Source: an uncultured Pseudomonadales bacterium
Lineage (GTDB): Bacteria > Patescibacteriota > Microgenomatia > UBA1400 > UBA12028
NCBI GenBank assembly: GCA_964574065.1
Contig: CAZNKS010000001.1
Location: 1 to 43,444 of the forward strand
Reading direction: 5' to 3'
Length of the DNA: 43,444 nt
The translations under genes and the position numbers were made by a program. The notes under the pieces are model-generated. The model was not told the DNA's origin. It was given only the letters and a program-made list of their open reading frames with translations, and made no database searches. This document shows positions 4,658 to 13,272 of the stretch, piece after piece; within the stretch, counting starts at the first letter, position 1, and every line of letters begins with the position of its first letter.

Positions 4658-5752
4658 TTACAGTATTCGGACACAACTTTGTGTGAACATATCCAAATTC
4701 CCATCCAATACTGCCGTGGTATCTGAGGTTTCAACTTTCGTACGCGTGTCTTTCACCAAGTGATATGGATGAAGCACGTAGTTGCGAATTTGATTTCCCC
4801 ATCCTGCAATCTTGTGTTCACCTTTAATGTTTGCAAGTTCCTCCCCTCGTTTTTCTTCTTCCATTTGGGCAAGCTTACTCTTCAAAATAGAAAGCGCAGT
4901 TTTTTTATTTTGTTCTTGATAGCGCTCTTGTCTGCATTCCACGATTATGCCTGTGGGGATATGACGCAAAATAACTGCAGAGTTCACTTTGTTTACATTT
5001 TGTCCACCGTGTCCACCTGCCCGAGTAAACTGCCATTCCAAATCATCAGGTTTTACCTCAATCTCTTTATCATCCTCTTCAATCAGTGGCATGACTTCGA
5101 CTCCCACAAATGATGTTTGTCGAAGATTATCGGCATTGAAAGGAGAAAGTCGCACGAGTCTATGAGCTCCTCCTTCGTGTTTGAGCAAGCCATATACCAG
5201 GTCACCGTGGACAATATAGGTAACAGACTTTAAGCCTTCTTCGGCTCGTGATTCTTCAACTGTCTCCCACTTCCAGCCTTTACGTTCAAAGTATCTTGTG
5301 TACATACGTGACACAATACTTGCCCAGTCGCAAGCTTCGCTTCCACCTTGTCCTGCATGGATAGAAAATACCGCATCACGAGAATCGTATTTGCCAGAAA
5401 GAAAAGTTTGAATTTCTAGAGCATCCAGTTCCTGTTCAAGGGTCTGTACGGTTTGTGCGTATTCTGCTTCTAAAGCTGGATCATCTCCACTACCAATAAG
5501 TTCCTCAATACCTATGAGGTCAGAAAATTTTTTTTCAGTCTTGGCAATAACAGCAAGCACATTTTCAATTCGCGAAATTTCTTGACCGACAGTTTTCACC
5601 TTTGTTTGGTCATTCCAAAAATCTGGATTTTCGCGCTGAGAAGACAACTCTGCCAGTCGAGTTTGTTTTTCAGCTACCCCAAGCCTGTCTGAGATGGCAG
5701 AAAACTTAGCAGACAGCTCTTCTCTTTTGGTCGTTAATTCGTACGCAATCAT
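4658..5752 (-). CDS. prfB: Peptide chain release factor 2, a single uninterrupted frame
   Basis: SPF tripeptide (RLSPFNADN) and GGQ motif ([12 protein letters not shown]). The track start at 5782 is a TTG. The ATG at 5752 ([13 protein letters not shown]) gives about 364 aa, typical for RF2. Confidence 0.9.
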
Positions 5753-5802
5753 AGGAGTATTGTACAGCCAAAAAGCAAGCAATCAGAGGATAGACTCGAA
5801 AT

Positions 5803-5842
5803 CTATAGAGGAGTTTACGCCTACATGGAGTGGAAGGGTCAA
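5803..5842. repeat. Degenerate remnant of the cassette repeat (central module) at the prfB-proximal edge of the island
   Basis: ctatagaGGAGTTTACgCCTacatgGAGtGGAAGGGTCaa compared with the repeat core ATAGGAGTTTACCCTGAGCGAGGCCGAAGGGTCGG. It lies just downstream of the HEPN gene stop (5943), where a cassette-terminal repeat is expected. Confidence 0.45.
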
Positions 5843-5942
5843 CGATATTGCTCTACTGCCACGCGATCCCCGCTTTGGCGGTGGAAACACTTCTCCCGTG
5901 TGCTTGCGCTGCGGGAATAACCCATTTTCAGATAAGAACAAC

Positions 5943-6305
5943 TTATTGCCCCACCTTGCTTAATAGTTCTAAAAGTTGTTTTTTGAGCTGAGGTGCCTCT
6001 ATGGTGGCTGCTTGCCAAACAATCTCTGCATCGATATCCCAGTATTCGTGAGCCAATTTATTTCGCATGCCAATGATCTGGTTCCATGGGATATTGGGGT
6101 TCGAAGAACGAAATTCTTCTTCCAGGTGTGAACAAGCTTCTCCGACAATTTCCAAATTTCGTACAACCGCATCGTACATCATTTCATTTTTTGAAAATTT
6201 AGCTTGATCCGTATTTTCAAGATACTCATGAATCTTGGTAACGGCACCAATAATATGCTGAATGTATGGGCTAGGACTCTTTTGCATACACAATTTGAAG
6301 ATCAT
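5943..6305 (-). CDS. hepT: HEPN-domain (DUF86, HepT-like) toxin
   Basis: Rx4H motif in GMRNKLAHEYWDID. About 115-120 aa. The gene overlaps the 3' end of the upstream MNT gene. An alternative ATG is at 6287. Confidence 0.8.
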   Translation of the reverse strand: MIFKLCMQKSPSPYIQHIIGAVTKIHEYLENTDQAKFSKNEMMYDAVVRNLEIVGEACSHLEEEFRSSNPNIPWNQIIGMRNKLAHEYWDIDAEIVWQAATIEAPQLKKQLLELLSKVGQ

Positions 6306-6573
6306 CTTGGATATATGGTTTGATATATTTGCTCAGTCCCTGTCTAGTTACTAAATCAACTTTCACTCCCAAGGTATTACTTAGTTCTTGTTCTAAGCCT
6401 ATAAATTCTATGAGTCCTGGAGTTTTTTCAAATGAAACAAGCAAGTCAATATCACTTCCATGTTTTTGATCACCCCGAGAATATGAGCCATACAATGCCA
6501 TGTATGAAATACCATTATTCTTGGCAATCTGTTGAAGGGCTTGCTGATGTTTTTGGATTAACACTGGTAGCAT
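6271..6573 (-). CDS. mntA: Minimal nucleotidyltransferase (MNT-type) antitoxin
   Basis: LYGSYSRGDQKHGSDIDLLV contains the GSxxRG...DxD Pol-beta-type NTase motif. The ATG at 6573 (MLPVLIQKH) is preferred. The track's longer start at 6627 runs into the repeat. Confidence 0.8.
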   Translation of the reverse strand: MLPVLIQKHQQALQQIAKNNGISYMALYGSYSRGDQKHGSDIDLLVSFEKTPGLIEFIGLEQELSNTLGVKVDLVTRQGLSKYIKPYIQDDLQIVYAKES

Positions 6574-6605
6574 TTCTCTAGTATAACAAAAAAATTTGTA
6601 AGGGT

Positions 6606-6714
6606 GTTTACAAACTCTCAAAAACACGATAGGAGTTTACCCTGAGCGAGGCCGAAGGGTCGGATCTATGGAATGAAATAATAACTCACTTCCAGATCAA
6701 TAATCCTATAGTTT
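6606..6714 (-). repeat. Cassette repeat copy 1 (long form, 109 bp)
   Basis: GTTTACAAACTCTCAAAAACACGATAGGAGTTTACCCTGAGCGAGGCCGAAGGGTCGGATCTATGGAATGAAATAATAACTCACTTCCAGATCAATAATCCTATAGTTT. It lies between the stop of ORF 6734..7249 and the start of mntA. Confidence 0.95.
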
Positions 6715-6733
6715 GTTATGTTTTTGAGATCAA

Positions 6734-7249
6734 CTAAATTCTACGCGTTGCATTCCCTTGTTCCTCAGTTCTTATTTGTCCCTCATGTACATAATCCTTC
6801 AAAGGGACATACTCACCTTCTTTACCGACACAAATTCTAGCTCCCATTTCCTGAAGTAACTGACTGGTAAACACCTCATCAAACCCAGGAAACCTTACAA
6901 ACAACACCTCTCCTTGATATTTTCGCATATACTCCCAACTTGGAGGTCTTATTTGATGTCCATGCCCCTCATGACCCTTCATTTGATCGAAGTCAGAGTG
7001 ATAAACTAAAAGAAACGGTTGGAGTTTATTAAAAGTTTCCTCATTTAGATCAAGCTTAATTACACATGGTTTTGATTCACGATGAATTGTTGCTGCTTTT
7101 TTTGCATAGCTCCAGTTAACATCCTGATCCCAATCTAAGGAGAAAGATATCGGTCCTTCCACAAGGGTATTTGACATCAAAACTTGCTCAATAATCTCGC
7201 CATTCTTTCCTGTGTGTGTCCCTCTAGATAATGTTATTTTCTCTGCCAT
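6734..7249 (-). CDS. Hypothetical protein (171 aa) with a His-rich segment
   Basis: Clean ATG ORF that exactly fills the space between repeat copies 1 and 2. Contains MKGHEGHGHQIRPP. I recognise no family. Confidence 0.55.
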   Translation of the reverse strand: MAEKITLSRGTHTGKNGEIIEQVLMSNTLVEGPISFSLDWDQDVNWSYAKKAATIHRESKPCVIKLDLNEETFNKLQPFLLVYHSDFDQMKGHEGHGHQIRPPSWEYMRKYQGEVLFVRFPGFDEVFTSQLLQEMGARICVGKEGEYVPLKDYVHEGQIRTEEQGNATRRI

Positions 7250-7270
7250 ACGTTTAATTGTACCAGGACT

Positions 7271-7379
7271 GTTTACAAACTCTCAAAAACACGATAGGAG
7301 TTTACCCTGAGCGAGGCCGAAGGGTCGGATCTGTGGAATGAAATAATAACTCACTTCCAGACTAAAAGTCCCATAGTTT
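7271..7379 (-). repeat. Cassette repeat copy 2 (long form, 109 bp)
   Basis: The first 62 nt are identical to copies 1, 3 and 6. The 3' part diverges (..TTCCAGACTAAAAGTCCCATAGTTT). Its end overlaps the stop codon (7378-7380) of ORF 7378..8007. Confidence 0.95.
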
Positions 7380-8007
7380 ATAATGTGTAAATACCCTTAG
7401 TGATAAGTGATAACCCAAAGTGGTATTCAAGAGCCTCATGTACTCTTTCTACTACATCACTATTAACTTCATCCCAATTAACCAATTCTCCCGAGTCAAT
7501 AATTCGAACTTTCCCAGATTCATCTAACACAAATTCTGCTGTGCTTGGTGGCCAAAGTCGTAACTGTCTGAGTAAATTTTCAATTCTTTCAACTTCAGCT
7601 CTGCGGAATCCCTCATCGGCAACTTGTAGTTCACCTGGTTTAAAGTCTATAAACTCCATTTCTATAACAGCACACGAATCATCATTTTGGACACTAAAAA
7701 AACGAGCTGGCAATTCACCTAGTAGACTTTGGTTTCTAACCTCTCGTTCAAACGATTCCTTTCTAAAAGAGTCTAGTGGTTTTGGATACCAGCTTGTTGA
7801 ATCTGCAAATTTTGGCTTAAAAATTACCTTGTAAGCCTTACCTGTGGATTCTGATAAGAAAACTGATCCAACTTGTCCCCTACCAACAAAACTGAAAGGT
7901 CCTGCTTGAGGAAAGTGCTTTTGTAAGATAGTGATGGCGATCTTAAGATTTTCCGGAGAGAGAGTACTATCTTTTCCTCTCTCACCATATTTCGGTTTCT
8001 CAGGCAT
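7378..8007 (-). CDS. Small protein-kinase-like-fold protein, possibly a degenerate or pseudokinase (209 aa)
   Basis: G-loop-like VGRGQVGSVF, Lys candidate in AYKVIFK, Glu candidate in FEREVRNQ, hinge-like AVIEMEFID and DFG-like RIIDSGE. There is no recognisable HxD...N catalytic loop (PPSTAEFVLDESGKV instead). Confidence 0.35.
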   Translation of the reverse strand: MPEKPKYGERGKDSTLSPENLKIAITILQKHFPQAGPFSFVGRGQVGSVFLSESTGKAYKVIFKPKFADSTSWYPKPLDSFRKESFEREVRNQSLLGELPARFFSVQNDDSCAVIEMEFIDFKPGELQVADEGFRRAEVERIENLLRQLRLWPPSTAEFVLDESGKVRIIDSGELVNWDEVNSDVVERVHEALEYHFGLSLITKGIYTL

Positions 8008-8036
8008 ATAATTGATATCTTAACCCATGAAAGGTT

Positions 8037-8146
8037 GTTTACAAACTCTCAAAAACACGATAGGAGTTTACCCTGAGCGAGGCCGAAGGGTCGGATCTGT
8101 GGAATGAAATATTAACCGAGTTCCAGATAAATTAATCCTATAGTTT
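8037..8146 (-). repeat. Cassette repeat copy 3 (long form, 110 bp)
   Basis: The 62-nt core is identical. The hairpin stems ATCT/AGAT and GGAA/TTCC are retained although the loop differs (..AAATATTAACCGAG..). Confidence 0.95.
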
Positions 8147-8156
8147 TTTCTATCCT

Positions 8157-8459
8157 TTAGTCAAATAACTCTTTGTTTTGATCTAGGTAATATTTAGTTC
8201 TCTGGTCACTCTTATCAATTTTAGTCTTTAATGCTTGAAGAAGATCAAGCAACTCACGTTCCATTTTGTATATTTTATCCTGACATTCTATCGGTGAAGG
8301 TCTGGAAGCATGGAAGAACTCTCCTCTAATGTAGCGAAAGAATTCGACTGAAAGTACGAGTTTGGGATATGTTTCAGCAACGTCTTCCTGAGACTGAGCT
8401 TGTATTAACTCTTTCTTGATAAGCGTAAAAAGATCATCTGCTAAGTAACAGAAATCCAT
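8157..8459 (-). CDS. Hypothetical helical protein (100 aa), third gene of the orphan three-gene cassette
   Basis: The ATG at 8459 is separated by 1 nt from the stop (8461-8463) of the upstream ORF, which suggests translational coupling. The track's longer version begins inside the upstream gene. Confidence 0.5.
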   Translation of the reverse strand: MDFCYLADDLFTLIKKELIQAQSQEDVAETYPKLVLSVEFFRYIRGEFFHASRPSPIECQDKIYKMERELLDLLQALKTKIDKSDQRTKYYLDQNKELFD

Positions 8460-8460
8460 T

Positions 8461-8709
8461 TTAGAGACCCCCGCCGTGATTATTCTTAGCTTCGTAATAT
8501 TCAAAAGAAGCGACATCCAATCGATCTAGAAGTCTATGATCAAGAGCTGAGAATTTTTCCATAAAGATTTTTCTATCTTCGCCAGAAAGAGGCTCTTCAC
8601 CGTTCTTTTCAAGCAATACAATAAGTTGCTTCAAGTATGAAAGTGCTGTGTTCCTTGCTTCAATGTACGCTTGTTTTTTTTGCACTTCTATTTGCATTGC
8701 ATCAGACAT
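8461..8709 (-). CDS. Hypothetical helical protein (82 aa), second gene of the orphan three-gene cassette
   Basis: ATG ORF with AAGGA about 8 nt upstream. It starts 15 nt after the stop of ORF 8725..9585. Confidence 0.5.
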   Translation of the reverse strand: MSDAMQIEVQKKQAYIEARNTALSYLKQLIVLLEKNGEEPLSGEDRKIFMEKFSALDHRLLDRLDVASFEYYEAKNNHGGGL

Positions 8710-8724
8710 ACTCTATCCTTTCGA

Positions 8725-9585
8725 CTAGTTTCTACTTATCAGAGCCATATAGGACTTCATATTTTCAATGTGTCGGTGTAGCTCTTTGAAAAGTGTTTCT
8801 TGACTTCGAGATTCTTGATTAGGCAATTCACCAGTTTTAGGATCTGCCTGCGGATCAACATATCTACGCATAGCAACAAACCTATTTTCTATTGCAGAAC
8901 CCACTCTATCAAACCATGAACTTAATTCTGTCAATTGAGACTGCATCTGTTCTACGGTTTCAGCTTTTGATACATTCTTCAAAAAGTCATTTACTCTTGC
9001 CGTAGTTTCTACACCTTGTCCTGAACCAAAGATGCTCATAATTGTGCCTTGAGCTGCATTTGCATCTACAGAAATTTGATACATTCGATTCCAAGCACCT
9101 TGGAATTCACTCATTGCAGTCTTCACGGTTTGGAGATTGACTTCTTTATTCTGATTTTCGATCTCCTTTGGTGCAACACCAGTCCCTGTCTCTGTTTCAG
9201 TCTGAGGAGGTGTAGCTGTTGGAGTTTCACCTGCCTCTGCCGTGTCCTTAGCCTTTTCTGTTGTTTGTTCGCTTGAATCACCCCCAGTAACTTCCGGCTG
9301 TCTAGTTTTGGTTTGCTCTTGCATTTGCATACCTCTTGCTCTCATGAATTCAACCATCATAGGATCAGATGCGATCGCATCATTTAGTGCTTGAAGCTGA
9401 TTGGTTTCACCCATCGCTTTTGCTTGCTTACCTCGCTCAACATAGTCTTTAGCCTTCTGAAGCTTTTCGTTTTCAGCTTTCACTTCATCCATGGTAAATT
9501 GCTCATCATTTGTGTTTTCCTCGGGACGTACCCCTTGCTGTTCTTCTATAGCCATTTCTTCAAATGATGGTTTGGATTCCGACAT
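8725..9585 (-). CDS. Hypothetical acidic protein (286 aa): disordered E/T/Q-rich N-terminal half and helical C-terminal domain
   Basis: ATG ORF and first gene after repeat copy 4. The N-terminal half is low complexity (..TEKAKDTAEAGETPTATPPQTETETGTG..). The C-terminal portion of about 130 aa is helical. I recognise no family. Confidence 0.55.
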   Translation of the reverse strand: MSESKPSFEEMAIEEQQGVRPEENTNDEQFTMDEVKAENEKLQKAKDYVERGKQAKAMGETNQLQALNDAIASDPMMVEFMRARGMQMQEQTKTRQPEVTGGDSSEQTTEKAKDTAEAGETPTATPPQTETETGTGVAPKEIENQNKEVNLQTVKTAMSEFQGAWNRMYQISVDANAAQGTIMSIFGSGQGVETTARVNDFLKNVSKAETVEQMQSQLTELSSWFDRVGSAIENRFVAMRRYVDPQADPKTGELPNQESRSQETLFKELHRHIENMKSYMALISRN

Positions 9586-9632
9586 AGCCTGGAGTATAAA
9601 AGCATTTTGAAGAAACTTAAAGTAGCTAGTTT

Positions 9633-9716
9633 ATTTACAAACTCTCAAAATCACGATATGTGTCGGATCTATGGAATGAAATAATAACTCAGTTCCAGAT
9701 TAAGAATCCTATAGCA
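9633..9716 (-). repeat. Cassette repeat copy 4 (short form, 84 bp)
   Basis: ATTTACAAACTCTCAAAATCACGATATGTGTCGGATCTATGGAATGAAATAATAACTCAGTTCCAGATTAAGAATCCTATAGC. The 29-nt GC-rich module AGGAGTTTACCCTGAGCGAGGCCGAAGGG is replaced by ATGTG. Confidence 0.9.
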
Positions 9717-9718
9717 AA

Positions 9719-10090
9719 TTATGTTTTTATCCTAACAAAATAGAATTGATTTAATTCGTCTCCACCTGCCACAAATTTATGTTTACTTCCAGCAGGAATA
9801 ATAATCACATCGTCAGGTTTATACTCCACAATTTGATCTTCCCAATAAAACTTACCTGTACCAGCAAGAACAACTCCTAGTTCATCATGATCATCATGTA
9901 TGTGCCAATCCCAATATTGGCCTGGTTTCAATAAACCTTTAGTCATTGCATCAATGTTGTCCGTTACCAAATCATCTTTGGTTGCTAAAGTTTGACGAGA
10001 ATCAGGAAGATCATGTGTGCCTTCAAGTGGTATTTCGCTGATGTGTTTTATTTGGAACATTTTCATCGTTAATGTGATTCTATCAGACAA
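9719..10090 (-). CDS. Cupin-domain protein
   Basis: Cupin motif 1 in WDWHIHDDHDELGVVLAGTG (HxH-x4-E-x6-G). The track start at 10090 is a TTG. ATG alternatives are at 10066 and 10060. Confidence 0.7.
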   Translation of the reverse strand: MSDRITLTMKMFQIKHISEIPLEGTHDLPDSRQTLATKDDLVTDNIDAMTKGLLKPGQYWDWHIHDDHDELGVVLAGTGKFYWEDQIVEYKPDDVIIIPAGSKHKFVAGGDELNQFYFVRIKT

Positions 10091-10109
10091 GTGAGGATAT
10101 ATGAGAACT

Positions 10110-10195
10110 ATTTACAAACCCACAAAAATACGATACATGTCGGATCTATGGAACCAAATTGTAACTCACTTCCAGATCAAGGAGCCTATAGCTTT
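10110..10195 (-). repeat. Cassette repeat copy 5 (short form, 86 bp, the most diverged copy)
   Basis: ATTTACAAACCCACAAAAATACGATACATGTCGGATCTATGGAACCAAATTGTAACTCACTTCCAGATCAAGGAGCCTATAGC. It lacks the GC-rich module. Confidence 0.85.
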
Positions 10196-10203
10196 ATACG
10201 TTT

Positions 10204-10749
10204 TTACTGACTCAAGAACTCAGGAAACTTAATAATTAGTAATCCATATGCGCTGATAGTTGGAGCATCGGTAATCTGGCCTTGTTCGACAGCTTGAGCA
10301 AACTCTACTGGAGTCAATTCCAAACGCTCTAATCCTACTTCTGTTAAATCAAGATTTGCTTCTTTTTGAACAAGATCAGTCGCTAAATAAATATGAAATC
10401 CTTGATTACTGTAACCTGGTGCTTCGTGTAAAAATCCAATGTGTTTTAGTTTGTTTGCCTCAAACCCTGTTTCTTCAAGTAACTCGGCTTTTGCCATAAG
10501 ATCAGAGTCTTCATCTGGCTTATCTTCATGTTTACCCTGAGGGAATTCAATAGATTCTTGTTTAGTAGGGTAACGATACTGTTTAACTAAATGAAATTTC
10601 TTACCGTCAAAAGGCACAATTAAAGCAAAATCTGATTTATCAACGACTCCATAAATACCTTTATGTCCATTCGGAAACTCAACTTCATCTTCTAACACTT
10701 TCATCCATGGATTTTGATAGACAATCTTTGTTGCCAATTGCTTAATCAT
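10204..10749 (-). CDS. NUDIX hydrolase (ADP-ribose pyrophosphatase-like)
   Basis: Nudix box GKHEDKPDEDSDLMAKAELLEETGF (E-x7-[R/A]ELLEETG). 181 aa. Confidence 0.8.
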   Translation of the reverse strand: MIKQLATKIVYQNPWMKVLEDEVEFPNGHKGIYGVVDKSDFALIVPFDGKKFHLVKQYRYPTKQESIEFPQGKHEDKPDEDSDLMAKAELLEETGFEANKLKHIGFLHEAPGYSNQGFHIYLATDLVQKEANLDLTEVGLERLELTPVEFAQAVEQGQITDAPTISAYGLLIIKFPEFLSQ

Positions 10750-10787
10750 GTTTATATTCTATCTTGTAGGTGTTGTCTGGGAAAGGT

Positions 10788-10896
10788 GTTTACAAACTCT
10801 CAAAAACACGATAGGAGTTTACCCTGAGCGAGGCCGAAGGGTCGGATCTATGGAATGAAATAATAACTCACTTCCAGATCAAAAGTCCTATAGTTT
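10788..10896 (-). repeat. Cassette repeat copy 6 (long form, 109 bp)
   Basis: Identical to copy 1 except for a few bases near the 3' end (..CCAGATCAAAAGTCCTATAGTTT). Confidence 0.95.
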
Positions 10897-10975
10897 ATTT
10901 TGTTTTTACTGGTAACGAGTCTCCTACTTCTCAGCCAATAACTCAAAAGCTTGCTTTGGCTGAAATCGATTAAGT

Positions 10976-11281
10976 CTACTCTGTATCCAGAGAATCATTA
11001 TCATCCATATTCATTTCTGCGGCAACCATATTACCCCAGATCTGCATGAAGACTTGCATAGCTCCGTCTATCCCAACTAAATAGGCATACTCGCTTAAGA
11101 CCATCTTTGCTTGCTCTTCGTCGGCATTTCTTATAGCAATTTCTAGCAATCTTTTTCTCGATACAGACCAATCAATAGCACTATCTTTCAAATAATCTCT
11201 TGAAGGCAATTCAGTTGGTCTTCCGTTTGGAAAAACTTCAGCAACCCAAGCTTCACGAGATTCAAAACTAAAAACTGACAT
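10976..11281 (-). CDS. Hypothetical small acidic protein (101 aa), coupled to the upstream nuclease-like gene
   Basis: ATG with AGGAG 8 nt upstream. It starts 21 nt after the stop of ORF 11303..12238. The C-terminus is acidic (MNMDDNDSLDTE). Confidence 0.55.
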   Translation of the reverse strand: MSVFSFESREAWVAEVFPNGRPTELPSRDYLKDSAIDWSVSRKRLLEIAIRNADEEQAKMVLSEYAYLVGIDGAMQVFMQIWGNMVAAEMNMDDNDSLDTE

Positions 11282-11302
11282 AGAAAATTCTCCTAATAAT
11301 AA

Positions 11303-12238
11303 TTATTTTTCTTTCGTTTCAAGGAATTTTTTATATACTTGCTTCATAATGAAGACTGCGTAGTCAATATCTTCTGGTTTCTCGATATTCATCCTCGACA
11401 CATGATGATGGAAATACTCATAGGAGTTTTCCATGTAGGAGACCTTCTTTTCAGGATCATTGAGTTCTTCAGGTCTTGTTCTTCCAAATTCAAAACCTAG
11501 TTTGTTTCTATATACCTTCAAAACGGCGATATTCCATCTACCAATGTTGAATCCAATGTAAATCTTGGTCGGTTTTACTTCAATTCTCGAGTCAACAGCA
11601 GTAACTTTTTGCTCAAGTTCGTCAAACAACTCTCTACTGTGTTTACTACCTTCTTTAAAATGATCATCTATTGAATAACTTTTAATCTCCCTACTCACTT
11701 TTTCAACTACTTGATCATCTGTGATTTTACTAATTGATTCTTTTGCATTTTTTGCTTTGATCTGGTTATAGAGCAACGTGCCATTCTCAAAAACCTTTAC
11801 TTCCCAAAGTTGAATCGGTAAATCTTTAAAGTTAATGGCATTTTGCTGATGGACGGTAAAAGAGTTAGCAATAAAAAGCACTCTAGATTGTGACCAGTCT
11901 ATATCTTCCCGCTTCAATGTTTGTCCAAGTTGCTCGTTATACTCAAGGATAAACTCCGCTTTTTGATTCAGCATCAAGGACAAGTAAGCAAATCCTTGAT
12001 CAATAATTGAAAAACTTCTATCCCGTTTATACTCAAGAATTACAAACGAGCCAGTACTTTCATCAAAAGCAAGAGTATCAATTCTCAAATCTCCAAGTTG
12101 GAGTTCAGATTTAACAAAAGTGAGTCCAAAAATCTCTGATAGGTTCTGCTCTGTAAGACTTTGGATATCTTTTTCGAGCTCTATCTTCTTTTCATTAATA
12201 GTTTTCAGCTTTTTGCCATTGATCTGAAAAAGTGGCAT
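11303..12238 (-). CDS. PD-(D/E)XK nuclease-like protein (NucS/DUF91-type core) with a C-terminal DUF5655-like region
   Basis: LRIDTLAFDESTGSFVILEYKRDRS matches the D...E-x-K core of NucS/DUF91-type nucleases. 311 aa. It is the first gene of the island. Confidence 0.55.
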   Translation of the reverse strand: MPLFQINGKKLKTINEKKIELEKDIQSLTEQNLSEIFGLTFVKSELQLGDLRIDTLAFDESTGSFVILEYKRDRSFSIIDQGFAYLSLMLNQKAEFILEYNEQLGQTLKREDIDWSQSRVLFIANSFTVHQQNAINFKDLPIQLWEVKVFENGTLLYNQIKAKNAKESISKITDDQVVEKVSREIKSYSIDDHFKEGSKHSRELFDELEQKVTAVDSRIEVKPTKIYIGFNIGRWNIAVLKVYRNKLGFEFGRTRPEELNDPEKKVSYMENSYEYFHHHVSRMNIEKPEDIDYAVFIMKQVYKKFLETKEK

Positions 12239-12286
12239 ATTTGATCTGGATTATACATCCAAATTGGTTTTTTACCTATGGATATA

Positions 12287-12315
12287 CCAACTCTCATAGA
12301 GTTAGTCCTATTTTT
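12287..12315. repeat. Strongly reduced remnant of the cassette repeat at the tatD-proximal edge of the island
   Basis: CCAACTCTCA-TAGAGTTA-GTCCTATTTTT resembles three collapsed blocks of the repeat (CAAACTCTCA / TAGGAGTTTA / GTCCTATAGTTT) in the same orientation. Confidence 0.3.
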
Positions 12316-12444
12316 GTAATCCTGAGTAACTTGAGATTGGCATTTATTGAAGTTGTAATGAGCCGTGTTCTTTTTGAAGATTTGTCAACCAATCAATAAA
12401 GAATTTATTTGCTTCAATTCTTATTTGTGGCCGGGAGGATAGAA

Positions 12445-13272
12445 CTAGAACCTAAATGCTTTATGTGCGTTTTTATCTATAATGCCATCAAAGTCCACGA
12501 GCTCTTTTTCAAGTGTATTGGCAATAAACCGAGCAGTTTCCATCACTCCACTTGGATCGTTCGTTTGACCTCTTCTTGATTGCGGTGGGAGAAATGGACT
12601 GTCAGTTTCTACGAGCAGCCGATCAAGCGGAACGACATCAAGCAGAGCTCTGATCGCATGAGCGTTTGGATATGTCACGTTGCCTGCAAAGCTCACATAG
12701 GCACCAAGTTGTATGGCTTTGGAAATGTAATCAGGACTTCCAGAAGCACAATGGAGAATGAATTGAGGAAGTTCATTCTCTTGCTGTAACGCTTCAAGTT
12801 CATCAAGTAGATCAGCATAGGCATCAAAAGGAATGGTTGTTTGATCTCGAAAGGATCGACAGTGAATAATCAGGGCTTTTTGCGTCTTCAAAGCCAATTT
12901 TGCTTGTGCCCGGAACAGCTTGCGTTGTGCTTGCCTGGTTTCATTCCAGGTGTTGGAATCAAAGCGACTGTAATCAAGTCCACATTCTCCAATAGCTACT
13001 ACTTTTTCTGATGAGAGTAGAGTTTGAAGTGCGTCGATAGAGCTTTGTATTTGCTCATCGGATATGTCTGGAGTTGCTTCTTCCGGATGAATCCCTATAC
13101 TTGCGAATACTGATGAGAATTTCGTGGCACACTCGATTGCTGACTTACTCGTTTGTAGGTCAGTGCCAACTACAACCATAGCTTCCACACCTGCCAGGAG
13201 TGCTTTCTCGTAGTATTCCTGGGCCTTTTCGGCAAGCGGTGAGAGATTTAAATGACAATGGGTATCAATCAT
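12445..13272 (-). CDS. tatD: TatD-family metal-dependent DNase/hydrolase
   Basis: MIDTHCHLNL at the ATG at 13272, and a conserved ...ETDSPFL.P motif near the C-terminus. The track's 61-aa N-terminal extension overlaps secG and is not credible. Confidence 0.85.
   Translation of the reverse strand: MIDTHCHLNLSPLAEKAQEYYEKALLAGVEAMVVVGTDLQTSKSAIECATKFSSVFASIGIHPEEATPDISDEQIQSSIDALQTLLSSEKVVAIGECGLDYSRFDSNTWNETRQAQRKLFRAQAKLALKTQKALIIHCRSFRDQTTIPFDAYADLLDELEALQQENELPQFILHCASGSPDYISKAIQLGAYVSFAGNVTYPNAHAIRALLDVVPLDRLLVETDSPFLPPQSRRGQTNDPSGVMETARFIANTLEKELVDFDGIIDKNAHKAFRF

Follow-up and report, generated by a model that had tools for sequence, protein, structure and literature searches.

Tandem gene cassettes bounded by a composite repeat and lacking an integrase in a Woesebacteria-like Patescibacterium

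Introduction

The attC sites of integrons and of clusters of attC sites that have no integron-integrase (CALINs) are built of R and L boxes, are modelled by structure owing to their poor sequence conservation, and become chimeric upon crossover (Cury et al. 2016, PMC4889954). Cis-mobilizable elements (CIMEs) are outlined in a review (PMC5704250; Pavlovic 2004; Bellanger 2011) as elements that have lost their integration genes, keep their attachment (att) sites, accrete in tandem, and can be mobilized in cis or in trans; the ssrA island arrays of Dehalococcoides are presented as tandem accretion of integrative elements (PMC3146451). In the streamlined genome of Prochlorococcus, tycheposons form tRNA-adjacent islands in which successive integrations push older elements inward, att sites separate the cargo, and integrase-less remnants occur (Hackl et al., 10.1101/2020.12.28.424599). 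Here we describe an island of 6,640 bp (5795-12434, minus strand) that has features in common with these systems. It lies in a 43,444-bp stretch of contig CAZNKS010000001.1 (GCA_964574065.1), which was analysed as a whole and is called the window below; coordinates are window positions unless another locus is named. The island consists of seven co-oriented cassette units separated by six co-oriented copies of a repeat, and its host is a Woesebacteria-like Patescibacterium of the candidate phyla radiation (CPR).

The Patescibacteria of the CPR have tiny genomes and are generally held to be poor in classical mobile elements. How they gain accessory and defence genes is poorly understood. One concrete route is visible at this locus: small cassettes that have standard ends and no recombinase are stacked at a tRNA gene or at a secondary site, and their order is reshuffled between near-identical strains. 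Of the known behaviours, the tandem accretion of integrase-less elements at tRNA genes in the style of CIMEs and tycheposons comes closest. What sets the locus apart is the single-gene size of the units, their standardized non-tRNA end modules conserved across divergent genomes, the stacking of up to seven units, and the CPR host. No description of such arrays was found in the literature on Patescibacteria/CPR integrons, attC, cassettes, genomic islands or tyrosine recombinases. We consider it probable that the units are integrase-less mini-islands shuffled by conservative site-specific recombination at a CCGAC core, with an unseen enzyme acting in trans.

Results and Discussion

Structure of the repeat

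An earlier note, made from the sequence of the window alone, had placed six co-oriented copies of one repeat family in the island. A repeat search recovered all six, on the minus (gene) strand, and exact matching gave the same result: a 15-mer from the repeat centre and a 16-mer from its 3' part each occurred six times, always on that strand and nowhere else in the 43,444 bp. When up to three mismatches were allowed there were eight matches in total, a number that none of 100 shuffled sequences attained. The extent of the repeat had to be revised. Each copy reaches about 11 nt further in the 5' direction than first described, beginning AAAAACATAA and often overlapping the stop codon, and each is composite: a module A of about 67 nt, ending in CCGAC, is followed by a module B that is either short (29 nt) or long (53 nt), the whole A+B repeat being 96-120 nt.

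The consensus of module A, in gene orientation, is AAAAACATAAnAAACTATAGGAttaTTGATCTGGAAgtgaGTTAttATTTcaTTCCAyAGATCCGAC. Its six copies (6659-6725, 7324-7390, 8090-8156, 9662-9728, 10139-10205 and 10841-10907, all minus strand) start at the stop codon of the gene upstream or overlap it, and module B sits 20-50 nt ahead of start codons. Short B is the 29-nt sequence ACATATCGTGTTTTTGAGAGTTTGTAAAY (9633-9661 and 10110-10138, minus strand). In the four long copies of B (6606-6658, 7271-7323, 8037-8089 and 10788-10840, minus strand) ACAT is swapped for CCTTCGGCCTCGCTCAGGGTAAACTCCT, which holds a small hairpin.

Degenerate remnants had also been reported at both edges of the island, and both are real, with a different structure or placement than proposed. 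At 5795-5945, upstream of prfB, there is a seventh, degenerate copy of A plus long B, broken by a 68-nt GC-rich insert. The remnant at the other edge (12283-12330) is long-B-like and lies inside cassette 1, not in backbone DNA. The 68-nt insert (approximately 5850-5917, minus strand; CCCGCAGCGCAAGCACACGGGAGAAGTGTTTCCACCGCC...) folds at -24.6 kcal/mol, although its z is just -1.1. Rfam gave no match to it, and the other loci contain no copy.

Distribution and conservation of the repeat

Among 185,579 species-representative genomes, only four contigs, L001 to L004, contained the module A motif; partial repeat copies were found with a profile built from nine copies. L001 belongs to a Woesebacteria metagenome-assembled genome (MAG; GCA_040006915.1), which also contains locus L018. 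L002, L003 and L004 (CAYMVN010000004.1, CAZWPK010000004.1 and CAYOMO010000068.1) are labelled as uncultured Pseudomonadales or Gammaproteobacteria. Their content is CPR-like: their repeat family also occurs in Woesebacteria-like contigs, L004 has the same tRNA-Leu(UAA)/tRNA-Pro(UGG) arrangement as such contigs, and the rarA gene of L002 is 65-72% identical in nucleotide sequence to that of L016, a contig described below. The taxonomic labels or the binning of these three contigs look wrong. Metagenome scans for the repeat gave nothing or one chance hit, viral sequences gave nothing or chance 18-mer matches without flanking similarity, and a blastn search of phage and plasmid sequences gave no match.

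The mean nucleotide identity of module A was 84% between the window and other genomes and 87% within the window. TatD, by comparison, is only 46-50% identical in amino acid sequence to its nearest relatives, including that in the genome of L001 and L018, and rarA has the identity given above. Because module A is conserved above this genomic background, its conservation fits a functional, protein-recognized site and/or the exchange of cassettes rather than a recent burst within one genome.

The size of the repeat, its intergenic location and its presence in several copies would also suit a selfish element of the miniature inverted-repeat transposable element (MITE) or repetitive extragenic palindrome (REP) type, inserted independently into existing intergenic spacers of an accessory island. 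Against this, the repeat has no terminal inverted repeats and no target duplication at each copy, copies within a genome are no more alike than copies from different genomes, half-copies occur only at array ends, and genes travel with the flanking halves. The earlier note had named scatter into arbitrary contexts as the mark of such behaviour; instead, the rest of the 43 kb is free of copies, and all copies in six genomes abut the ends of open reading frames (ORFs) in arrays. A MITE- or REP-like origin therefore seems to us extremely improbable. The note's proposal of a structured intergenic element that had spread within one island fails as well, because genes move with half-repeats and the family is found in at least six genomes.

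Array ends and the unit of exchange

The arrays of five other genomes begin and end in half-copies of the repeat. In L003 the order is B alone, ORF, A+B, ORF, A alone; the arrays of L004 and L001 close with A+B, an ORF and then A alone; L002 has a larger block closing in A alone; and L016 and L022-L025 have the same pattern of array ends. The A-only ends (L001, L002, L003, L004, L016 and L022) read ...TCCGAC(A) and are followed by different, unrelated DNA each time. The B-only starts read (Y)CGAC, then ACATATCG..., and the lone B is fused to the 3' end of tRNA-Pro in L016 (...CACCGCCCCGAC joined to ATATATCGCGTTTTTGAGAGTTTGTAAAC) and to ...CACTCGAC in L003. The array starts and ends thus carry half-sites of the attL/attR type, and CCGAC is common to all internal junctions. 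Since B opens the arrays and A closes them, the unit must be B-gene(s)-A.

Each half of the repeat stays with its own gene. The 171-aa gene keeps a long B in both the window and L016 despite its differing upstream cassette, and the 286-aa gene of the window and its 262-aa homologue in L004 both keep a short B. The variable 5' part of module A tracks the upstream gene: where the window and L016 have the same upstream gene, this part does not differ between them. The crossover lies at the CCGAC core; B accompanies its downstream gene and A its upstream gene. Module A ends every unit. Several units that come first in an array or are truncated (L001, L004, L022 and cassette 1 of the window) have a degenerate B or none.

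The placement of the two modules relative to stop and start codons could alternatively mean that they serve expression, A as a 3' end, terminator or RNA-stability element and B as a 5' or promoter element, both being kept by selection while general homologous or illegitimate recombination reshuffles the genes. Module B contains TTGAGA, a possible -35 hexamer, with which TACAAT pairs at an 18-nt spacing in the case of the 171-aa gene; L026 has a B-like sequence without A, as if it were a native 5' region; and repeats of 96-120 nt at 87% identity can sustain RecA-dependent excision and re-insertion. However, the junctions with non-homologous partners (tRNA-Pro, tatD, the L003 backbone and five right flanks) all lie within a few nucleotides of CCGAC, so homologous recombination cannot account for them. 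The -35-like hexamer has a well-spaced -10 in a minority of copies only. Module A has neither a G+C-rich stem nor a T-run, and a terminator scan found one site, on the opposite strand and outside the repeats, versus 3.9 expected. The repeats matched no known RNA family of Rfam 15 at the gathering threshold or at E values up to 5. We regard this expression-based explanation as rather unlikely. Module B as a complete sigma-70 promoter was ruled out by the minority of copies with a properly spaced -10, and a promoter scan found fewer promoter-like sites than in shuffled sequences.

Reshuffling between near-identical strains

Through the 311-aa and 171-aa proteins of the island we reached two further contigs, L016 (a JGI contig of 5.5 kb) and L017 (a Logan contig of 1.6 kb), which are 98.4-99.75% identical in nucleotide sequence to the window across the common cassettes. 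The order in L016 is tRNA-Pro(UGG), B, a 298-aa ORF, A plus long B, the 171-aa ORF, A, the 311+101-aa cassette, A, and unrelated DNA. In the window, between tatD and prfB, the 311+101-aa cassette comes first and the 171-aa cassette sixth, and the 298-aa cassette is absent; in L016 and L017 the 171-aa and 311+101-aa cassettes are neighbours, in another order, at a tRNA-Pro gene. The 311+101-aa cassette (cassette 1) matches L016 3430-5022 and L017 at 99.75% identity over 1594 nt; in both contigs its counterpart comes after the A module of the 171-aa cassette. The 171-aa cassette (cassette 6) is 98.35% identical to L016 2707-3435, where it has a different upstream cassette (298 aa) and the same long B.

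The left end of the 311-aa cassette is the same in both contexts: in the window TCTATCCTCC is followed by CGGCCAC, and in L016 and L017 CACAGATC is followed by CGGCCAC. The junction from the A module of the 171-aa cassette to the 311-aa cassette in L016 and L017 reads GATCCGGCCAC. The two left partners are tatD (window) and the 171-aa cassette's A module (L016 and L017). Because they have only TCC in common, neither homologous recombination nor repeat-induced path-switching during assembly explains these junctions. The left end of cassette 1 is secondary, as indicated by a gene remnant at 12349-12430, so a cassette without a canonical B was still moved with precise ends. These comparisons demonstrate cassette-level reshuffling between near-identical strains, the breakpoints coinciding with the core, and they bear out the cassette-array layout with cassette-level variation that the earlier note had proposed.

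The tRNA-Pro target

An intact tRNA-Pro(UGG), identified with ARAGORN, lies directly upstream of the arrays in L001, L004, L016 and L022-L025, with a tRNA-Leu(UAA) further upstream in L001, L004 and L022. In L016 the last bases of tRNA-Pro run directly into B (...CACCGCCCCGAC joined to ATATATCGCG...). The tRNA ends in ...CCCCGA, which is followed by C; the CCGAC core thus comprises the acceptor-stem end, the discriminator A and a single base of the flank. In these loci, which represent four other genomes, integration at the tRNA 3' end left the tRNA intact. The arrays of the window and L003 lie at non-tRNA sites, that of the window being a secondary site. Descent of module A from a degenerate copy of the tRNA-Pro 3' half was considered and ruled out; only CCGAC and a non-conserved GTGAGTT are in common.

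L022 also has a 15-nt duplicate of the tRNA-Pro 3' end, TCCTGTTTCCCCGAC, bounding a remnant of about 190 nt. This duplicate shows the classic scar of an ordinary integrase-type insertion at tRNA-Pro in the clade. The remnant itself (L022 9779-9970), between tRNA-Pro and the duplicate, carries a strong terminator-like hairpin, AAAAAAACCAGCCGTATGGCTGGCTTTTTTT, and resembles an integrative element, decayed completely, at that attachment site.

Insertion between tatD and prfB

In the window the array is flanked by tatD on the left (12445-13230, minus strand; Pfam TatD_DNase 8.7e-61) and by prfB, encoding RF2, on the right (4658-5752, minus strand; Pfam PCRF and RF-1). The ATG of prfB (5750-5752) agrees with the starts in L018 and L020, secG lies beside tatD on the tatD flank, and every gene in the prfB-tatD interval is on the minus strand. 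Both the Pfam matches and the secG-tatD-prfB synteny of L018 and L020 confirm the core-gene flanks that had been read from the window. L018 and L020 retain the gene order SBP, secG, tatD, prfB, hypothetical gene, ftsE, ftsX, C39-like peptidase. In L020 the tatD stop codon and the prfB ATG are 15 nt apart and the island is absent, and in L018 the tatD-prfB spacer holds only an opposite-strand ParE/Phd pair; neither module A nor module B is present at these two loci. The island is an insertion relative to relatives with the same synteny, and an empty form of the locus would read tatD...TTCTAGTTCTATCCTCTGATTGC...prfB. The pair in the L018 spacer (L018 6752-7290; GCA_040006915.1, Woesebacteria MAG) is a ParE/PhdYeFM toxin-antitoxin pair without A or B, and the tatD-prfB spacer may be a general insertion hotspot.

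The ends of the island were placed in two ways: the left end where homology with L016 and L017 begins, at 12434, and the right end by a 9-bp direct repeat, TCTATCCTC. This 9-mer occurs exactly twice in the 43 kb, on the same strand and precisely at both island ends. The tatD-side copy (12435-12443, minus strand) is 1 nt past the tatD stop codon (12445-12447), directly outside the left boundary, which had been set independently by strain comparison; the prfB-side copy (5786-5794, minus strand) is 33 nt upstream of the prfB ATG. Because the tatD-side TCTATCCTC copy abuts the strain-comparison boundary, we define the island as 5795-12434 with a 9-bp direct repeat at both sides. The repeat may represent a target duplication or a short stretch of identity exploited in secondary-site integration.

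Search for a recombinase and the proposed mechanism

Pfam scans of ORFs of at least 150 aa and of gap ORFs of at least 60 aa found no recombinase or transposase family in the 43-kb window, in agreement with the earlier note. The ORFs near the arrays of L001, L002 and L004 were inspected by eye only. L022 has a 374-aa ORF between its tRNA-Leu and tRNA-Pro genes; neither PDB nor Pfam gave a relative of it, and it shows no resemblance to the ORF in the same place in L004. A Xer/dif-like site was considered; the likeness to the dif consensus is weak.

The units are joined head to tail at the short core (T)CCGAC. In the mechanism that we consider probable, when a unit was excised as a circle its A and B would meet across the core to form one attP-like site of 96-120 nt, and this site could recombine with another A/B junction or with a chromosomal site bearing the core. 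The preferred chromosomal site would be the 3' end of tRNA-Pro(UGG), secondary sites such as tatD-prfB being used as well, and repeated integration and excision would build, reorder and disperse the arrays. We infer that the reaction is conservative and site-specific and that its enzyme acts in trans, supplied by another part of the genome or by a helper element. Of the enzyme classes, a tyrosine integrase is favoured most, because the target is a tRNA 3' end and L022 bears the scar described above. Because module A ends every unit, it is likely to be the essential recombination arm. Module B may be a second arm, dispensable in view of the units in which it is degenerate or missing, and/or a 5' expression element.

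Several observations weigh against this mechanism. No recombinase was found in the window, in the scanned ORFs without Pfam matches beside the L022, L016 and L003 arrays, or among the precomputed Pfam hits of L016 and L022. The core is only 5-6 nt long, and no convincing dyad of recombinase-binding half-sites was found around it. Long B puts a 28-nt hairpin-containing segment in place of the core-adjacent ACAT, exactly at the crossover. Only about six genomes carry the family, and the evidence for mobility comes from few assemblies, all of them metagenomic contigs, of which L016 and L017 may share one community. Finally, the outer ends of the island bear the 9-bp TCTATCCTC repeat instead of CCGAC, so the array entered tatD-prfB by an event unlike the internal junctions. 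Entry of the array, or of its founder, may have been through recombination at a secondary site or at a microhomology, or by a transposition-type event that made a 9-bp duplication.

A transposase of the IS200/IS605 type (HUH/Y1) acting in trans could also move such units, as single strands, with module A as the right-end hairpin, cleavage just 3' of it, and insertion 3' of (C)CGAC without target duplication. The elements derived from this family, palindrome-associated transposable elements (PATEs), make no target duplication, use a short specific target, and have a sub-terminal imperfect hairpin and a strict orientation. All four features have counterparts in the array: the internal junctions lack a target duplication, the imperfect hairpin of module A stops 3-5 nt before the junction, the units are all on one strand, and a short specific target regenerated at each right end would explain tandem insertion in the same orientation. 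Unlike in PATEs, however, the hairpin is at one end only: no counterpart of it exists at the left end (B), and its motif occurs just once in each repeat. The cargo consists of ordinary genes instead of nothing or tnpB, units without a recognizable B, such as cassette 1, still moved, and TnpA is not in view, there being no Y1_Tnp or TnpB Pfam match in the window, small gap ORFs included. The 15-nt tRNA duplicate in L022, moreover, indicates integrase activity at the locus. Movement by such a transposase appears improbable.

Site-specific recombination at the core by an enzyme acting in trans remains our preferred reading, and a bolder form of it can be proposed tentatively, with doubt prevailing. 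Woesebacteria-like Patescibacteria might have evolved an integron-analogous gene capture independently, in which a dedicated non-IntI recombinase would recognize the 67-nt module A plus CCGAC, stack single-gene cassettes, among them defence genes and even a gene as broadly conserved as NUDIX, at tRNA-Pro and secondary sites, and permit exchange across genomes whose TatD proteins are about 47% identical in amino acid sequence. If one recombinase family does drive the arrays, they would be a second, mechanistically distinct answer to integron-type cassette capture, and they would offer a compact site of about 100 nt and a defined tRNA-Pro 3'-end target for heterologous assays.

Comparison with integrons

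The earlier note had likened the island to a sedentary chromosomal integron or CALIN. The core boxes of attC sites have the consensus RYYYAAC (R'') at the 5' end and GTTRRRY (R') at the 3' end, and crossover in integrons occurs between G and TT of R', at the 3' edge, nearly the whole site travelling behind its ORF. A true integron remnant would here require divergent attC sites folded as single strands and an IntI encoded elsewhere. Much of the layout invites that interpretation: the units are co-oriented, hold one to three genes and are each closely trailed by a 96-120-nt repeat; the cargo includes a toxin-antitoxin pair, NUDIX, cupin and orphan proteins; module A has an imperfect hairpin with a 2-nt bulge; and cassettes are reshuffled between strains.

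The site itself behaves differently. On both strands of 5700-12500 there were zero R''...R' pairs (RYYYAAC...GTTRRRY) at a spacing of 50-150 nt, compared with an average of 1.5 in shuffled sequences, in agreement with the earlier note, which had found no R boxes. The imperfect hairpin of module A, TCTGGAA(N16)TTCCA-NN-AGA, has a core that is invariant in 16 copies from six genomes. Positions that do vary break the pairing in 6 of the 16 copies, with zero compensatory changes, and a second candidate helix in A likewise showed no covariation. Fold energies of either strand as RNA were no better than those of shuffled sequences (z from -1.5 to +1.25). Comparison among copies gave no sign of the conserved secondary structure that an attC-like site would share. 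Module A is conserved as sequence and not as structure, whereas attC sites conserve structure (PMC4889954).

The position of the crossover differs as well. It lies in the middle of the site, at CCGAC, 67 nt in, and leaves 29-53 nt (module B) with the downstream gene. The arrays start at a tRNA gene, without intI or attI, and each cassette apparently carries its own -10 element. Because there are no R boxes, no covariation, a mid-site crossover and no IntI in the 43 kb, we do not file the array as an integron or CALIN, although it is integron-like at the level of the cassettes; we judge an origin as a true integron remnant very unlikely.

The array shares with integrons and CALINs the co-oriented few-gene cassettes, a recombination-site module at the 3' end, reordering between strains, a cargo of toxin-antitoxin pairs, small enzymes and orphans, and the possible lack of a neighbouring integrase (Cury et al. 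2016, PMC4889954). It differs from them in having no R or L boxes, in a site whose sequence is conserved without structural covariation, in a mid-site crossover that leaves module B on the next cassette, in its primary attachment at the tRNA-Pro 3' end and not at an attI beside intI, in cassettes that seem to have their own promoters, and in its Patescibacterial host. For annotators it is a warning that ordinary att-site logic can yield integron-like layouts.

Comparison with tandem integrative elements

Like CIMEs and the ssrA arrays, as far as the sources outline them (PMC5704250, PMC3146451), the arrays have no integration genes, line up one unit after another where a tRNA or transfer-messenger RNA (tmRNA) gene has its 3' end, would depend on an integrase of matching specificity, and receive newcomers at resident att sites. 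In the review's account CIMEs are decayed integrative and conjugative elements (ICEs) or integrative and mobilizable elements (IMEs) of several kilobases, with att repeats that copy the target gene's end (PMC5704250). The units here, in contrast, are 0.5-1.6 kb, mostly of one gene, and up to seven in a row, and their arms (the 67-nt module A and module B) are conserved across genomes and not tRNA-derived, the identity with the tRNA being CCGAC only.

The resemblance to tycheposons lies in the tRNA-adjacent islands of a streamlined genome, with successive integrations, att-separated cargo and integrase-less remnants. Tycheposons differ in that they encode their own tyrosine recombinase, often with replication genes, and have partial tRNAs as repeats (10.1101/2020.12.28.424599), whereas no unit here carries a recombinase and module A shares only CCGAC with the tRNA-Pro 3' end.

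Cargo of the seven cassettes

The division of the island into seven units stood, as did most of the proposed cargo (NUDIX, cupin, orphans, MNT-HEPN); a kinase-like label for the 209-aa protein found no support in Pfam, NCBIfam or PADLOC. The cargo genes are intact, with one to three per unit and most units having a single gene. Remnants of integrase, relaxase or phage genes were not detected in the units, the sole remnant being a fragment of a cargo gene.

Cassette 1 (10841-12434, minus strand, as are all the cassettes) contains the gene remnant (12349-12430), the long-B-like remnant (12283-12330), the gene for the 311-aa protein (11303-12238), a 101-aa ORF (10976-11281) and module A (10841-10907). 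The 311-aa protein matches the PADLOC candidate defence family PDC-S18 (5e-101). The 5' part of the cassette (12349-12430) is a pseudogene fragment corresponding to L002 2693-2774, the last 27 or so codons of a 133-aa gene, which L002 has intact. There the gene shares a block with a helicase-like ORF of 770 aa, and the block ends in a module A; the small cassette 1 may have arisen from a larger defence-type island through a deletion at the core. The 101-aa ORF is split in L016 (4583-4887) into ORFs of 49 and 64 aa, in a cassette that is otherwise 99.75% identical. Most of the remaining differences cluster in the 5-nt linker of module A (GGACTTTTGATC versus GGATCATTGATC), which suggests gene conversion among A copies.

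Cassette 2 (10139-10840) consists of long B (10788-10840), a NUDIX gene (10204-10749) and A (10139-10205). In L022-L025 the unit that comes first after tRNA-Pro holds a homologue of the NUDIX protein (84% amino acid identity) and has a module A at its end. The NUDIX family of this cassette is widespread in Patescibacteria, with 601 hits at E values up to 1e-10, of which the best 120 of 601 are 52-88% identical. Its relatives adjoin tRNA-Pro: that of L022 (10001-10555) lies downstream of tRNA-Pro and closes with a module A, in L026 (NUDIX at 4669-5232) the B-like sequence lies between a tRNA-Pro(CGG) and the NUDIX gene, without A, and in L001 (4742-5377) a different NUDIX subfamily lies upstream of tRNA-Pro. 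Relatives at about 70% identity (L027, L028 and L029) carry neither A nor B. A broadly conserved NUDIX gene seems to live inside the cassette system, or to have seeded it.

Cassette 3 (9662-10138) has a short B (10110-10138), a cupin gene (9719-10090) and A (9662-9728). Cassette 4 (8090-9661) has a short B (9633-9661), three orphan genes encoding 286 aa (8725-9585), 82 aa (8461-8709) and 100 aa (8157-8459), and A (8090-8156). A search of a set of 5.8 billion proteins with the 286-aa orphan found no homologue but itself; its 262-aa homologue in L004 is preceded by a short B and followed by an A-only end. Cassette 5 (7324-8089) has a long B (8037-8089), the 209-aa orphan gene (7378-8007) and A (7324-7390), which overlaps the stop codon. 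Cassette 6 (6659-7323) has a long B (7271-7323), the 171-aa orphan gene (6734-7249) and A (6659-6725). Cassette 7 (5795-6658) has a long B (6606-6658), genes for an MntA-like nucleotidyltransferase (approximately 6271-6573) and HepT (5943-6305), and the degenerate A plus long-B copy (5795-5945).

Other features of the island and its flank

The prfB gene (4658-5752) is one uninterrupted ORF, with no programmed +1 frameshift site in view. In many of the island genes, and in prfB, a TAnnnT box lies just 6-13 nt upstream of the start codon. This placement suggests leaderless or very short-leader mRNAs, driven from each cassette.

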